Program-made: the position numbers and the translations under genes
Shown: positions 10,005 to 56,039 of the stretch, in pieces
Layout: every line of letters begins with the position of its first letter
How positions within the stretch are numbered: position 1 is the stretch's first letter
DNA from: an archaeon GW2011_AR15
GTDB lineage: Archaea; Nanobdellota; Nanobdellia; Woesearchaeales; GW2011-AR15
Direction: 5' to 3'
DNA: 64,000 nt
Assembly (NCBI GenBank): GCA_000830295.1
Contig: CP010425.1
Span: 64,001 to 128,000, forward strand
Notes under the pieces: generated by a model
What the model saw: the letters and a program-made list of their open reading frames with translations, nothing else
The model's database searches: none
Told to the model about the DNA's origin: nothing

Positions 10005-11021
10005 ATGCGAAAAGCCAGCATGAAAATTTATTATGATCCTCACCAATTCTCTGATGTTAAGGCACTCATGAATCTGTACTGGTATACGGCCGGTAAAAGC
10101 AGCAAGGCGATATTATTCAAAGATTCCCCTGTAGTAAATGACCATAACAGCGTATCTGAAGAAAAACTTCCTATAGCAGAGACTTGGAGAGGCAATACGC
10201 TTTGTATCAGCACTTACGCAGATTTTTCTAATTCATTGAACTCGGGCGGTTTAACCCTTCAGATAGATGCAAAACTTCTCCATAACTGCGGCTCTGTTTC
10301 TTCATTGGAGGATAAAATAAAGGCAAGAAAAAAACTGGACATTCCAGATGATATGCCTATTGTAGTGATAGGGTTTGTGAAAGGATCAAACATTGGCTTG
10401 CTTAACCATCTGCTGAAAAAGATTTCAGAGCTAAGCAGGATATATCTCTTTCCCAGCTGGGGGACACTGGGCACTCTGCCGCATAACCCAAACTTGATGA
10501 AGCATCCGAATATAGAAATAATAGATACATATGGTGAGCTTGAGAATTATTTTAAGTGTGCTGATATCGCCCTTTATGCTGACACAATTTCACCAAGGGA
10601 GGGGATAATGCACAATTATATTGAGGCAACAGCAGGCGGATTGCTTTACTGCGTTGAGCCAAGCAGGTCAAGAAGCCAGTATGGATTCAAGGAACTGCTC
10701 AAGGGAGGCTCAATAGTTTCATGCCAAAGTCTAGATGAGGTGAGCAACAGGATTGCAGTGCATCTTGGGTGCGGGACTCTGGAAAAAGATATCGAAGCCT
10801 CACAGATACCGAGAGATCGGCACATAAAAAAAACTATTGACACCTATCTCCCTGTATTAGCAAAATGGATAAACTTTATATCAGATGCAGGAAACCATGC
10901 TGAAATAGAAGGGTTTCCTGCTGCAGACCTTAAAGTGTACTGGAGAAAAGACCCTCTTGTTGTCAGGCTTCTGCATCCTGTCAGCAGATATAAAGGAGTG
11001 TCAGACAGTATAGTGCCTTAA
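10005..11021 (+). CDS. GT-B glycosyltransferase-like protein resembling the C-terminal domain of WaaA/KdtA
   Basis: IIDTYGELENYFKCADIA...HNYIEA resembles WaaA DTMGEL...ADLAFVGGS...HNPLEA. Confidence 0.45.
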   Translation: MRKASMKIYYDPHQFSDVKALMNLYWYTAGKSSKAILFKDSPVVNDHNSVSEEKLPIAETWRGNTLCISTYADFSNSLNSGGLTLQIDAKLLHNCGSVSSLEDKIKARKKLDIPDDMPIVVIGFVKGSNIGLLNHLLKKISELSRIYLFPSWGTLGTLPHNPNLMKHPNIEIIDTYGELENYFKCADIALYADTISPREGIMHNYIEATAGGLLYCVEPSRSRSQYGFKELLKGGSIVSCQSLDEVSNRIAVHLGCGTLEKDIEASQIPRDRHIKKTIDTYLPVLAKWINFISDAGNHAEIEGFPAADLKVYWRKDPLVVRLLHPVSRYKGVSDSIVP

Positions 11022-11029
11022 TTCTGTTA

Positions 11030-11146
11030 TCAAGCACACAATTAAAAAAAATGGGCCTGACTTGATTCCCACCAATCCTTTTCAGCATTGATGGGGAAAG
11101 TGTGTTTCCCTTCGGTCAAGCACACAATTAAAAAAAGTGGGCCTGA
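11030..11146 (-). repeat. 31-bp direct repeat of the tRNA-Ile 3' end plus trailer, enclosing a structured element
   Basis: tcaagcacacaattaaaaaaa[a/g]tgggcctga at 11030-11060 and 11116-11146, one mismatch. Confidence 0.9.
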
Positions 11147-11241
11147 GCGGATTTGAACCGCCGACCAATGGCTTTCTTAGATAACATGTACCAATGGCGG
11201 TCATATAAGACCATCGCTCCACCAGGCTAAGCTACAGGCCC
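11138..11241 (-). tRNA. tRNA-Ile(TAT) with 30-nt intron (11174-11203)
   Basis: Acceptor GGGCCTG/CAGGCCC, anticodon stem ATGGT/GCCAT, loop CT-TAT-A|A, T-loop TTCAAAT, BHB helix CTTA/TAAG. Confidence 0.92.
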
Positions 11242-11291
11242 GTAAAAAGACCCTGGTGTGATGCCATGGAAACTTAATCGATTTTTATAGT

Positions 11292-11594
11292 TTACTCATT
11301 CCCGACGACTTCATTGTGCTGGGTTTCGAGTTTCTTCACGAAGAAGTTGAGGCAGTCTAGCCCGCAGAAAGTTGCTTTTTTCCTGAAATCCTCAGGGCCG
11401 AAAAATAATGCGTATCTGGGCTCGCCTTCATGGACTGTGCCGCAGGTGGCGCATATGTTGGAAGGGAATTTTTTCTCAAACCCCTCCAGCCTGGCCTTCA
11501 GCAGCCTGGCTATGTTGCCCTCATACAGGTCCTTCTCTATTGCTTTTAAGTCCTTATAATTCATAGAACTAATCATGTTTGAGAGCCGGTTCAT
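11292..11594 (-). CDS. Small protein with TRASH-like metal-binding motif
   Basis: CATCG...FCGLDCL at the C-terminus. Confidence 0.65.
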   Translation of the reverse strand: MNRLSNMISSMNYKDLKAIEKDLYEGNIARLLKARLEGFEKKFPSNICATCGTVHEGEPRYALFFGPEDFRKKATFCGLDCLNFFVKKLETQHNEVVGNE

Positions 11595-11646
11595 ATGTAA
11601 ATCCTATATAGGAGTGCTGTTTATATTCTTTTTCCTTTTCCAATTA

Positions 11647-11714
11647 TGAAAATTCACTGAAATCTCTTTTTGTAGTGAATTTTCAACTTGAAAATCAGCT
11701 AAAGTGATTTTCAA
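11647..11714. repeat. Two adjacent perfect inverted repeats in a divergent promoter region
   Basis: TGAAAATTCACT (11647-58)/AGTGAATTTTCA (11674-85) and TTGAAAATCA (11688-97)/TGATTTTCAA (11705-14). Confidence 0.8.
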
Positions 11715-11757
11715 TTAAGAAAACTATAAAAAACAACATGAATTACTTGGATAATAT

Positions 11758-11884
11758 GCCGCGGTCGCATAGCCCGGCCATTGCGATGGATTGCTAGGAG
11801 CTTTTGTTCCTCAGAAACCTACACTGGCCCACAAATATCCATTGTCCTTTTTGGGACACGTGAGTTCAAATCTCACCCGCGGCG
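11758..11884 (+). tRNA. tRNA-Ser(GCT) with 40-nt intron (11797-11836)
   Basis: Acceptor GCCGCGG/CCGCGGC, G discriminator, stem ATGGA/TCCAT, long variable arm TGTCC...GGACA, T-arm GTGAG-TTCAAAT-CTCAC. Confidence 0.92.
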
Positions 11885-11989
11885 TCTTTTTTTCAAGTGT
11901 GGCTAAGTGAAACGCATGCCGCACCTGTTTTCCATCAATGCTTTTTCTAAAAGGATTGGTAAGAATCACACTTCGCGGCGCTTTTTTCA
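11878..11989 (+). repeat. Duplicated tRNA-Ser 3' end plus T-run, enclosing a structured element
   Basis: CGCGGCG(T)CTTTTTT(T)CA at 11878 and again at 11974; closing stem AAGTGTG (11895-901)/CACACTT (11967-73). Confidence 0.8.
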
Positions 11990-12025
11990 TCAGTTTTATA
12001 AACCAGCACTGATTTTCTATATGCC

Positions 12026-12784
12026 ATGAAAAGCAAAATATTCCTTCTCTTCATAGGCACATTGTTCTTAATAGCTGCATGCACAAAAACACAGAATATT
12101 ACCTCATTTGAGGAATGCGCAGCAGCAGGCTATCCTGTAATGGAAAGCTATCCGAGGCAGTGCAGGGCAAACGGAGAATTATTTGTTGAAGAAATGGTTG
12201 AACTTGCATGGACAGGATTTATTCAATGCCCTGATGAAAAGCCTGAAGTATGTACAGCAGATTATAGACCAGTATGCGCGCTAAAAGACAACGGTCTCAG
12301 ATGTATCAAAGCACCATGCCAGAGCTTTGATGCTGTAACAATGGGCAATGACTGTACAGCCTGCGGAGATGCAGAGGTATTTGGGTATTATCCTGGTGAG
12401 TGTGAATACAGAAGGTTTGTAATATGTGAAGAAACAGAAAAAGGATTTAATATAACAAAAATGGCAGAAGAATATGGGTGGGATTGTGTGGACATCTGCC
12501 CCGGCAACTATGATGAGTATTATACGCAGATAGGGTCAACGGCATGCATAATCCATTACGGAGAGGAAGAGATAAGTGAGTGGGAAACCTGCGATAGGTC
12601 TTCTGATTCTTGCAACTGCGTCAAGGCATATGAGACAACAGATGGTCACAAGAGTGCAGAAGAAGTGCAGGTTGAAAACGCAAAATTCAGGTGCGTGCCT
12701 GAGGAGTATGCTGAAAGGCTGCTGTTCAGGGGCGGGCAGGAAAGATTAGATGAGAACGGCGAATCCTCCACTATAATTGCCTAA
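12026..12784 (+). CDS. Secreted or lipid-anchored cysteine-rich protein with a Kazal-like segment
   Basis: Signal peptide with IAAC, ITSFEECAAAGYPVMESYPRQC module, CTADYRPVC Kazal-like motif. Confidence 0.7.
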   Translation: MKSKIFLLFIGTLFLIAACTKTQNITSFEECAAAGYPVMESYPRQCRANGELFVEEMVELAWTGFIQCPDEKPEVCTADYRPVCALKDNGLRCIKAPCQSFDAVTMGNDCTACGDAEVFGYYPGECEYRRFVICEETEKGFNITKMAEEYGWDCVDICPGNYDEYYTQIGSTACIIHYGEEEISEWETCDRSSDSCNCVKAYETTDGHKSAEEVQVENAKFRCVPEEYAERLLFRGGQERLDENGESSTIIA

Positions 12785-47017: not shown

Positions 47018-47106
47018 GCGACGATAGTTGAATGGTACAATACGACGTTGCCAATGCGCAAGCAAGCAAACACGTTGTGGCCCGGGTTCGATTCCCGGTC
47101 GTCGCA
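47018..47106 (+). tRNA. tRNA-Gly(GCC) with 18-nt intron (47054-47071)
   Basis: Acceptor GCGACGA/TCGTCGC, stem CGACG/CGTTG, BHB helix TTGC/GCAA, T-arm CCGGG-TTCGATT-CCCGG. Confidence 0.93.
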
Positions 47107-55541: not shown

Positions 55542-56039
55542 ATGAAATATATAACTCAAAAGGATATGAGAAAGCTGATAGGCTCAGTCAGCAGCCAGAG
55601 GGATTCCCTGGTAATCAGAATTATTTATGAGACCGGATGCTCCCTAAAAGAGCTTGCTGGAATTAAAGTCTCGGATATCGCAGGCAACATGATAAGGACA
55701 GGAAAAGCAGCAAGGTTCTCCCAGATATCCGGGAAGCTATCAAAAGACCTTAAGCTTTACACAGAAGGGAATAGCATCAAAAAAGAGTCATTATTATTTG
55801 ACATATCCGGCAGAAGAATTTCACAGCTGACAGAATCCCATGCTGAAAAAATACTCGGAACCAGGTTAACACCCCATGATCTAAGGAACCTCCACATAAT
55901 GCATGCCTATCTCAATGGTGTTTATCTGGAAAACATAGCCGGCCAGACTGGGTTAAGTGAGCTTAGGATATTCCAGATAATAAGCAGTTTCAATGTAAAA
56001 CCTGAAAGAAACTACGGGAATTTCCTGAAGAGAACCTAG
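55542..56039 (+). CDS. Degenerate tyrosine recombinase-like protein (catalytic domain only)
   Basis: RDSLVIRIIYETGCSLKEL and TPHDLR boxes; first Arg, second His and nucleophile Tyr positions not conserved. Confidence 0.75.
   Translation: MKYITQKDMRKLIGSVSSQRDSLVIRIIYETGCSLKELAGIKVSDIAGNMIRTGKAARFSQISGKLSKDLKLYTEGNSIKKESLLFDISGRRISQLTESHAEKILGTRLTPHDLRNLHIMHAYLNGVYLENIAGQTGLSELRIFQIISSFNVKPERNYGNFLKRT

Follow-up and report, generated by a model that had tools for sequence, protein, structure and literature searches.

The window analysed here is a 64,000-nucleotide stretch (contig CP010425.1, positions 64,001 to 128,000) of the genome of the DPANN-type archaeon GW2011_AR15, which was surveyed in full (1,157,790 bp in a single contig, 42.5% G+C, CheckM-type completeness of 96.8%). 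Intron-bearing tRNAs and an RNase P RNA of archaeal type are among its archaeal features. Positions 11030-11989 of the window hold two copies of a two-hairpin element without an open reading frame (ORF), here termed E1, one located behind tRNA-Ile(UAU) and the other behind tRNA-Ser(GCU). Read in the sense of the tRNA, both loci have the same order of features: a T-run, hairpin 1, a short U-rich linker, hairpin 2 (CCATCAATGC...AAGGATTGG), a few nucleotides, a partial tRNA 3′ end and a further T-run. The motifs shared by the two loci, which had been noted in a preliminary description of this DNA, occur exactly twice in the window, at 11071-11094 (minus strand) and 11932-11960 (plus strand), and were matched in 0/100 shuffles.

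The first locus lies on the minus strand and begins with the intact, proximal tRNA-Ile(UAU) gene (11138-11241; Rfam RF00005, 54.3 bits). Its anticodon UAU and a 30-nt canonical intron were assigned by hand reading; ARAGORN places the intron differently and calls Ser(tga), yet the gene has no long variable arm, and CTTATA is kept in the anticodon loop of the tRNA-Ile orthologues of five same-genus genomes. The best flanking repeat (score 28) is a 31-nt direct repeat whose proximal copy (11116-11146) comprises the acceptor 3′ strand, the discriminator, a T7 run and AATTGTGTGCTTGA; the repeated unit reads TCAGGCCCA, T-run, AATTGTGTGCTTGA, and 30/31 positions are identical between 11146-11116 and 11060-11030. 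Hairpin 1 (11100-11125; GTGTG..CTTGA..GAAA..CACAC type) was delimited by sequence reading. Hairpin 2 (11068-11096) consists of CCATCAATGC, the GAAA tetraloop reported previously, which is indeed present, and GGATTGGTGG; it contains the pattern match at 11071-11094 and is matched at 11070-11104 (42.9 bits) by R1, a covariance model of hairpin 2. The distal orphan tRNA-Ile 3′ end (11030-11067), recognised by sequence reading and the repeat finder, starts with a diverged T-loop/T-stem part (AATCAAG), continues with an exact TCAGGCCCA and a T8 run, and closes with 14 nt that match the start of a further E1 5′ end.

On the plus strand, the second locus begins with an intact tRNA-Ser(GCU) gene (~11758-11884) with a 40-nt canonical intron and a long variable arm; ARAGORN run with introns reports it at 11757-11886 (genome 75757-75886), and Rfam gave no call. 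The proximal repeat, CGCGGCG-T-C-T7-CA (11878-11895), consists of the tRNA-Ser 3′ end and T-run; it was found by sequence reading, being too short and too interrupted for the automatic repeat finder, which missed it. Hairpin 1 (11897-11924; GTGTGGC...GCCGCAC) was also read from the sequence and is followed by the linker and hairpin 2 (11922-11961; R1 match of 46.1 bits, pattern match at 11932-11960). In the distal orphan tRNA-Ser 3′ end (11964-11989, sequence reading), a diverged AATCACACTT precedes CGCGGCG-C-T6-CA, the proximal version being AATCTCACC-CGCGGCG, and the CGCGGCG, T-run and CA of the tRNA thus recur at 11974-11989.

The distal tRNA-end copies and T-runs reported earlier are therefore present at both loci. 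In both distal copies the T-stem part is mutated (3/4 nt in Ile; several nt and an extra base in Ser) and the acceptor part is unchanged. On this sequence evidence, the window copies look like ageing sense-type insertions, with intact proximal tRNAs and decaying orphan copies. The arrangement is not an assembly artefact, as contigs from three other studies span it and carry the elements without differences. Contigs of 7,780 nt and 2,978 nt match 10700-11164 without a difference, and positions 11757-12300, with tRNA-Ser, E1, the distal copy and the downstream gene, are covered by a 3,092-nt soil-metagenome contig (run X8) in which every difference is located inside the tRNA-Ser intron. As a separate observation, this intron (window 11787-11853) has 24 substitutions and 8 gaps in the soil contig, in which the sequence upstream of the tRNA is unrelated. 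Judging from this comparison, the intron is apparently changing, or being exchanged, much faster than its surroundings.

The preliminary description had proposed either a miniature tRNA-targeting mobile element with target duplication or an undescribed tRNA-trailer RNA, and a covariance-model scan as the means of finding further copies. R1, a short model with rough E-values, finds 16 E1 copies in this genome. At least five more, too diverged for R1, lie near genome positions 32826, 635421, 680222, 1106518 and 1106666, as indicated by a direct-repeat scan (13-mers spaced 40-260 nt; 76 runs in the genome), giving a genome total of at least 21. Among 60 relatives, R1 matches were obtained in 15/19 other genomes of the same family compared with 2/41 genomes of other families in the order, and a degenerate hairpin-2 pattern occurs in at least 118 metagenome contigs. 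The copies are mutually related, so these and the following counts are not independent, and many gene assignments in the relatives were read by hand. E1 is a dispersed family, probably an insertion element and not a tRNA-specific trailer RNA. Its distribution at orthologous sites is patchy: E1 is found after tRNA-Ile(UAU) in none of the five same-genus genomes, four of which carry a different insert, E2, instead, and after tRNA-Ser it is present in one same-genus genome and absent from another.

At least three other insert families (E2, E3 and E4) have the same duplicated-end architecture. E2 occurs at genome 997012, 170574, 770874, 765286/765336 and 1078713 and at loci L153, L154, L156 and L158; its motif resembles CTCACTTGCGTTCG in either orientation, and its large form starts with an antisense T-arm-like stretch and is followed by the tRNA 3′ end copy. 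E3 occurs at genome 24744 and 1133360 and has a terminal hairpin GATAAGGG..CCCTTATGTGG directly before AATCC. E4, at genome 635507 and 863004, starts with CATCAGCTGGTTACGC.

Comparison of E1 with Rfam 15 gave no family at the gathering threshold; permissive runs, at E<=10 for the region 10900-12100 and at E<=1 for ten other loci, gave none either. A ribozyme or other known RNA family was rejected as a candidate, since the strict and permissive Rfam runs found only tRNAs and RNase P RNA. Likeness to a K-turn, a hammerhead, a tetraloop-receptor or a dif site was judged by eye only and is unconvincing, and a promoter and terminator scan with bacterial signal models returned nothing useful. No description of such elements was found in the literature on DPANN or other archaea, the search covering texts outside their supplementary tables.

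Covariation in hairpin 2 was assessed on 70 aligned copies (68 distinct), the alignment being fitted to the model and the copies being related. The top pair of the lower stem is GC in 37 copies, UA in 17, CG in 5 and AU in 4, another pair is CG in 62 and UA in 5, and a further pair is UG in 30 and UA in 21; a conserved G-G mismatch is unpaired in 57 copies and replaced by G-C in 10. The covariation score of 0.146, compared with 0.067 for shuffled alignments, was reached by 0/500 shuffles. Hairpin 1 comes in several sequence types with compensated stems, and its region folds better than shuffled sequence (mean z -2.28, with 39/68 copies below -2). The Ile-type stem recurs at genome 763003 and 1111706 and as the compensated variant GTACG/CGTAC at 769560, this subtype not being strongly predicted by RNAfold, and the Ser-type stem is found elsewhere with compensated changes as GTGTGAC/GTCGCAC and GTGGGAC/GTCGCAC.

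A three-way junction common to both copies, with different but complementary closing stems, had also been claimed and does not hold for the family. RNAfold forms it in the Ile copy (z -3.33), whereas the Ser copy (z -1.72) lacks it in its minimum-energy fold, and across the 68 copies the 5′ region is no more complementary to the sequence beyond hairpin 2 than expected by chance (5.03 nt vs 4.78 nt when shuffled). The sequence GAATCA, earlier taken as a motif of the element, and the 3′ halves of the supposed closing stems belong instead to the diverged T-loop/T-stem part of the duplicated tRNA end. An undescribed trailer or self-cleaving RNA accordingly finds no support, there being no Rfam match and no conserved junction. 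In a broader form of this idea, E1 would not be mobile but would have a function as RNA or DNA, for example as a terminator, as a 3′ element bound by a protein or as a self-cleaving three-way junction; selection would conserve it, and the duplications would be by-products of recombination beside it. Hairpin 2 is highly conserved and widespread, with 62/76 metagenome matches lacking a duplication among the matches listed; G-U pairs on the sense strand (the UG/UA pair above), GNRA loops in some copies and T-runs in the sense orientation also speak for such a module. We nevertheless regard such a module as decidedly improbable: Rfam, ribozymes included, gives no match, the junction is not conserved, orthologous sites are patchily occupied, and the occurrence of E1 in both orientations, in introns and in RNase P RNA, as described below, is hard to fit to one function in cis.

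A flanking direct repeat was detected in 50/68 copies, with a median length of 20 nt (range 12-56). For the 50 copies bounded in this way, the median E1 length is 78 nt (range 50-164), and the distal repeat copy starts between -9 and +16 nt relative to where the hairpin-2 model ends. In all of the ~40/50 copies for which the gene could be named by hand, without exception, hairpin 1 faces the gene body and hairpin 2 faces the orphan fragment, so that E1 is in sense orientation at gene 3′ ends and in antisense orientation at 5′ ends. In this genome, E1 is found at roughly twelve tRNA 3′ ends and at a single tRNA 5′ end; of the protein genes, AsnRS, Pth2 and one more are targeted at the 3′ end, and groEL, dnaK and one more at the 5′ end; in relatives the targets include RNR (four genomes), AsnRS, enolase and others. 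Over 20 different target sequences in one genome share no common target motif. Tandem arrays of inserts at one site are seen at genome 594705 and 594797 and at 765286 and 765336. Thus, of the miniature tRNA-targeting mobile element proposed earlier, the dispersed family and the duplications stand, and the restriction to tRNAs falls with the copies at protein-gene ends and in RNase P RNA. In a separate observation, the RNR frame of one relative (L037-type copies; G008:C18 46082-46119) appears to continue into E1 after a 13-nt repeat, and from its sequence E1 may there supply a new RNR C-terminus instead of a duplicated stop.

End copies at tRNA genes were counted genome-wide with a test that requires 12 nt with at most one mismatch. 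The last 12 nt of the tRNA are copied within 250 nt downstream for 17/40 tRNA genes, the copies being due to at least three insert families, and the first 12 nt are copied upstream for 2/40, while the wrong-side controls gave 0/40 each. This test misses both window loci and one more, and the true count is at least 20. Where the T-loop is recognisable, the tRNA-linked repeat starts 2-5 nt after T54 (positions 56-59) in 17/21 loci.

This start position bears on a retroposition route, in which E1 RNA would be reverse-transcribed with a template switch onto abundant RNAs such as tRNAs and chaperone mRNAs, giving SINE-like duplications of variable length, the T-loop start marking a reverse-transcriptase stop at m1A58. 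The variable length of the duplications, the A-rich end of the antisense strand and the highly expressed nature of the target genes would fit such a route as well. Set against these points, the genome has no RVT_1 domain, and neither do 17/20 family genomes (this one included), among them the E1-rich G004, G005 and G007; RVT_1 is present in the other 3/20, unrelated to the E1 count, and G015, which has one, gives no E1 match. At the 5′ end of dnaK, only 5 nt separate the upstream gene's stop codon from the first position of the repeat, which is not a transcript start, by which a transcript-end model was also rejected. Retroposition is therefore considered highly improbable.

[quoted passage not shown] By the same partial accounts, E1 differs from MITEs in lacking terminal inverted repeats, in having variable duplications of 12-56 nt rather than short fixed ones, in its strict orientation to the gene end and in its location at gene termini, with some copies in introns. 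The duplications of casposon-derived elements are ~14-15 bp and depend on Cas1; there is no Cas1 here, and the repeats are 12-56 nt. The insertion sequences IS1634 and IS1549 reportedly make long direct repeats of variable length and provide a precedent for DNA transposition with duplications of the kind seen at E1. They are, in contrast, full insertion sequences with DDE transposases and inverted ends, and this genome is without DDE_Tnp_1.

One E1 copy is located within a structural RNA. The archaeal RNase P RNA (genome 561703-562045; L001 504-846; Rfam 98.7 bits) has 51 nt inserted in its P3 loop, and this insert is an entire E1 in sense orientation, with hairpin 1, linker and hairpin 2. Here GGACTG serves both as the hairpin 2 3′ arm and as the 3′ strand of P3, and no duplication is visible.

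The repeat geometry at tRNA genes also recalls site-specific integration. The inserts could be miniature remnants or satellites of integrase-driven integrative elements, the gene-end copies being attL and attR and E1 containing recombinase-binding arms mobilised in trans. In favour of this are the identity block from the T-loop to the tRNA's 3′ end, the fixed orientation, the tandem arrays at one site (594705 and 594797; 765286 and 765336) and the presence of different occupants at one tRNA (E1 at tRNA-Ile here, E2 in four same-genus genomes). Prophages can supply a replacement gene end, and the Pth2 repeat, with an identical core beside the element followed by diverged gene ends, matches this pattern. 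A published model holds that the integration of mobile elements creates tRNA fragments and introns (PMC3293823; PMC9897764), and this too counts for an integrase. Both sources describe integrative elements in tRNA genes whose insert, as with E1, is bracketed by an intact tRNA and a partial 3′ copy, with a block that starts in the T-loop (PMC9897764; PMC3293823). Further likenesses are that a single site can have tandem or alternative occupants and that there is a connection with intron gain. Integrative elements measure kilobases, encode a recombinase and use one target, whereas E1 is ~80 nt long, has no recombinase nearby and occupies more than 20 targets including protein-gene ends. A single element family at more than 20 different sequences without a common motif is difficult to reconcile with an integrase; none is located beside any copy, the genome containing one Phage_integrase above the cut-off and one weak match, and no E1 was found in viral contigs. 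We consider this origin rather unlikely. As for a viral source, exact hairpin-2 scans of IMG/VR gave 19 and 4 matches, all in unrelated sequence, and 13 of these 23 represent one repeated phage region resembling coding sequence; a viral origin was rejected.

Six copies in relatives lie in tRNA genes interrupted in the T-loop, with an antisense E1 inside; neither Rfam nor ARAGORN calls these genes. In the tRNA-Ile gene of G009 (L033), read in the tRNA sense, the T-stem 5′ strand and TTCAAAT are followed by the antisense E1, a conserved adaptor ending in GCTTGG-TGAA-AGT, and the T-stem 3′ strand with the acceptor. The predicted structure is a canonical bulge-helix-bulge consisting of the T-stem helix, a 3-nt bulge AGU, a 4-bp UUCA:UGAA helix, a 3-nt bulge AAU and an intron helix. 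An antisense T-loop directly follows hairpin 2 in 17/151 copies scanned, and 7/17 pass a strict test (central helix 4/4, A[G/A]T bulge, T-stem 5/5), namely six loci of relatives and one metagenome contig, each with a different T-stem. The metagenome locus covaries in its central helix (UUCG:CGAA, TTCG:CGAA in the DNA), and RNAfold reproduces the motif for this locus (z -2.69) and gives a related fold for the G009 tRNA-Ile (z -4.19). Non-canonical bulge-helix-bulge introns of tRNAs resemble E1 in that related sequences occur at non-canonical positions of different tRNAs, and the T-loop introns described here have the bulge-helix-bulge geometry; unlike them, E1 also occurs beyond tRNA genes, where it can have the reverse orientation, be accompanied by duplicated gene ends and lie at protein genes. 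Intron transposition in archaea has reportedly been proposed from work on Thermoproteales, and ultrasmall archaea are said to have a splicing endonuclease of broad specificity.

In this genome, a tRNA-Ala(UGC)-like gene (~1043072-1043195, minus strand) has a canonical intron and a ~34-nt, E1-free T-loop intron that ends in TGAA-AGT; ARAGORN does not list this gene. The low count of 39-40 tRNA genes may be due to T-loop introns.

The 3′ tail of sense E1, GCTTGG-TGAG-AAT, resembles the intron adaptor GCTTGG-TGAA-AGT. It pairs 4/4 with T-loop positions 54-57 in 7/21 tRNA-linked copies, the Ile copy included, and at >=3/4 in 12/21, while control registers gave 0/189 at 4/4 and 27% at >=3. The window copies reach 4/4 (Ile, with the distal T-stem destroyed) and 3/4 by hand (Ser) in the central helix, and three loci of this genome, one each with E1, E2 and E3, have a T-stem of 5/5, a central helix of 4/4 and an acceptor of 7/7. 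The main alternative to an insertion element is that the tRNA-linked loci are tRNA genes with working T-loop bulge-helix-bulge introns whose 5′ part happens to include a complete spare 3′ end. The stretch from proximal position 60 through E1 would be spliced out, E1 would be the structured core of the intron, and the distal copy would be the real or an alternative 3′ exon. Besides the tail pairing and the three loci of three insert families just mentioned, this is favoured by the true T-loop intron with its 3′ module TGAA-AGT in this genome (tRNA-Ala near 1043100), by the antisense-E1 T-loop introns of six relatives' loci and one metagenome contig, whose tail is like the sense-E1 tail, and by the distal acceptor parts, which are identical even when the rest diverges. 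Against it stand the proximal tRNA, which is complete by itself, the T5-T7 runs that usually precede the distal copy in sense E1 or its leader, and the 14/21 copies that fail the 4/4 register. The mutated distal T-stem makes an exon-exon helix impossible in Ile and imperfect in Ser, and a hand check of two protein-gene loci, Pth2 and AsnRS, revealed no bulge-helix-bulge. This alternative is judged unlikely, with some chance left to it. An earlier suggestion that the distal copy could pair with the tRNA 5′ strand as an alternative acceptor stem unexpectedly gains partial support: in 7/21 tRNA-linked copies (Ile included) the E1 3′ tail and the distal copy together would complete a T-loop bulge-helix-bulge splice site, but in Ile the distal T-stem is mutated away.

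Orientation separates the two kinds of tRNA locus. Sense E1 contains T5-T7 runs and antisense E1 contains none; such runs are archaeal terminators, and their presence would explain why introns carry E1 only in antisense and sense copies occur only behind a complete gene. A bolder view, which we hold to be improbable, is that E1 and its sister families are mobile T-loop introns that use archaeal RNA splicing to move. When the proximal end and E1 are excised at the bulge-helix-bulge, the product would be a probably circular RNA composed of a gene-end piece and E1, which, as such or copied into DNA, would enter gene ends again, whether homologous or new ones. Loci with duplicated ends would then be intermediates of intron gain, or spare 3′ exons replacing a damaged tRNA 3′ end. 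If true, this would be a route of transposition for elements without a transposase of their own.

The proximal and distal gene ends were also compared with each other. Repeats at tRNA genes are mostly identical between copies, and acceptor parts stay identical even where other parts of the distal copy diverge. Repeats at protein-coding genes often have synonymous or conservative differences and keep the stop codon. The Pth2 repeat starts with 21 identical nt and continues with 33 nt that are ~50% different, and both versions encode a family-like C-terminus; Pth2 of G003 has a second, independent E1 insertion with another start position, and its distal copy is again a coding-like variant. In one case at an enolase 5′ end, the same serine is encoded by TCT in one copy and AGT in the other, and the orphan copies in the RNR and AsnRS cases are likewise foreign-looking. 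At the sequence level, this allele pattern points to recombination between lineages rather than to decay of a fresh duplicate. The evidence is mixed, because in several loci the differences cluster beside the element and in AsnRS of G013 some are non-synonymous. The pattern matches that of the mobile-ORF 'gene hybrids' in Glomus and Allomyces mitochondria, described as a gene body, a C-terminal copy, an insert and a diverged second C-terminal copy (PMC3630166). Many of the differences are synonymous in those hybrids, and horizontal transfer was inferred by the authors (PMC3630166). Unlike E1, the inserts there are homing-endonuclease genes that explain the mobility, whereas E1 has no ORF, its duplicates are shorter, and tRNAs and 5′ ends are involved too (PMC3630166).

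Taken together, these sequence comparisons favour, as the explanation we consider probable on balance, a miniature DNA insertion element that is kept only where the gene survives and whose cassettes are exchanged by homologous recombination. E1 would insert as DNA, choosing sites close to or at the termini of genes, which for tRNA genes would mean the T-loop. Sense copies would persist through a terminal segment duplicated upstream of the insert, with T-runs of 5-7 stopping transcription before the orphan; antisense copies, which have no long T-runs, would persist through removal of the insert by the tRNA splicing endonuclease; and a tolerant loop of a structural RNA would be a third way for a gene to survive. 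Once established, cassettes of gene end, E1 and orphan would pass from lineage to lineage through homologous recombination, for which gene body and orphan would provide the homology arms; this would explain why orphan copies look foreign but functional. The enzyme for primary insertion would not be encoded in this genome; candidate routes are a staggered cut with long fill-in, with IS1634 and IS1549 as precedents, an integrase acting in trans, strand invasion by a gene-end piece, and the splicing machinery.

Several observations weigh against this explanation. Domain searches of this genome gave no match for RVT_1, Cas1, Y1_Tnp or DDE_Tnp_1 (other transposase families were not searched) and a sub-threshold match only for a TnpB-type domain. 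A single 331-aa frame exceeds the Phage_integrase cut-off (genome 1153920); it adjoins no E1 copy and is presumably Xer-like. The repeat length varies four-fold, unlike with most transposases, and terminal inverted repeats are lacking, the longest inverted match between the 20-nt ends averaging 4.12 nt in 50 copies vs 3.82 nt when shuffled. In ~8 protein 3′-end cases read by eye, the similarity between copies ends at, or a few nt from, the stop codon, and the clustering of copy differences beside the element, already described, is a further difficulty. Duplication is absent from E1 in RNase P RNA and in the T-loop introns and is thus not an obligatory product of insertion. Only 14/76 evaluable metagenome matches of the hairpin-2 pattern, among the matches listed, have a flanking repeat, and hairpin 2 may for this reason be a functional module in its own right. 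A near-identical strain without the element was not seen, and insertion is deduced from diverged genomes only. The predicted empty-site string of a tRNA-Val locus had no match in metagenomes, which says little, and Logan contigs break at the repeats and provided no joint that removes E1, two joints being intron-less tRNAs of other organisms. A 166-aa frame in the window (55548-55967; genome 119548-119967) has a weak Phage_integrase match (25.5 bits, below the cut-off), adjoins no E1 copy and, apart from the 331-aa frame, is the only signal resembling a recombinase.

These results bear on how archaeal tRNA genes gain oddly placed introns, become split or leave fragments. Here one element family in one lineage is found in three states, as an insertion with a duplicated gene end, as part of a presumably spliceable T-loop intron and as an insert in RNase P RNA, and these states are testable intermediates. 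Nearly half of the tRNA genes in a 1.16-Mb genome carry such inserts, which therefore shape the genomes of these ultrasmall archaea to a large extent. Annotation can be misled by them as well, through partial tRNA copies, T-loop-interrupted tRNAs missed by ARAGORN and Rfam, and short 'pseudo-ends' of aminoacyl-tRNA synthetase, RNR, chaperone and enolase genes. If it is true that insertion needs no dedicated enzyme, or uses the splicing machinery, E1 would represent a new mode of persistence for selfish DNA in streamlined genomes.

Three further observations concern genes met in the survey. The C-terminal 293 aa of the AsnRS (Asn/Asp-tRNA synthetase) of this genome (L006 3-881) are 78-85% identical to sequences in many Asgard-labelled metagenome-assembled genomes (L069-L148); for groups so far apart this identity is unusually high and may reflect gene transfer or mislabelled bins. 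The window's third tRNA (47018-47106; Rfam tRNA score of 55.3 bits) is not followed by E1; ARAGORN names it Trp(cca) in its plain mode but, once introns are allowed, Gly(gcc) with one of 18 nt. A 'tRNA-Stop (tta)' containing a 13-nt intron is listed by ARAGORN, again with introns allowed, at genome 179899-179984 (minus strand); the gene shares its 5′ end with tRNA-Gln(ctg), and the call is probably due to wrong intron placement and does not indicate a suppressor tRNA.

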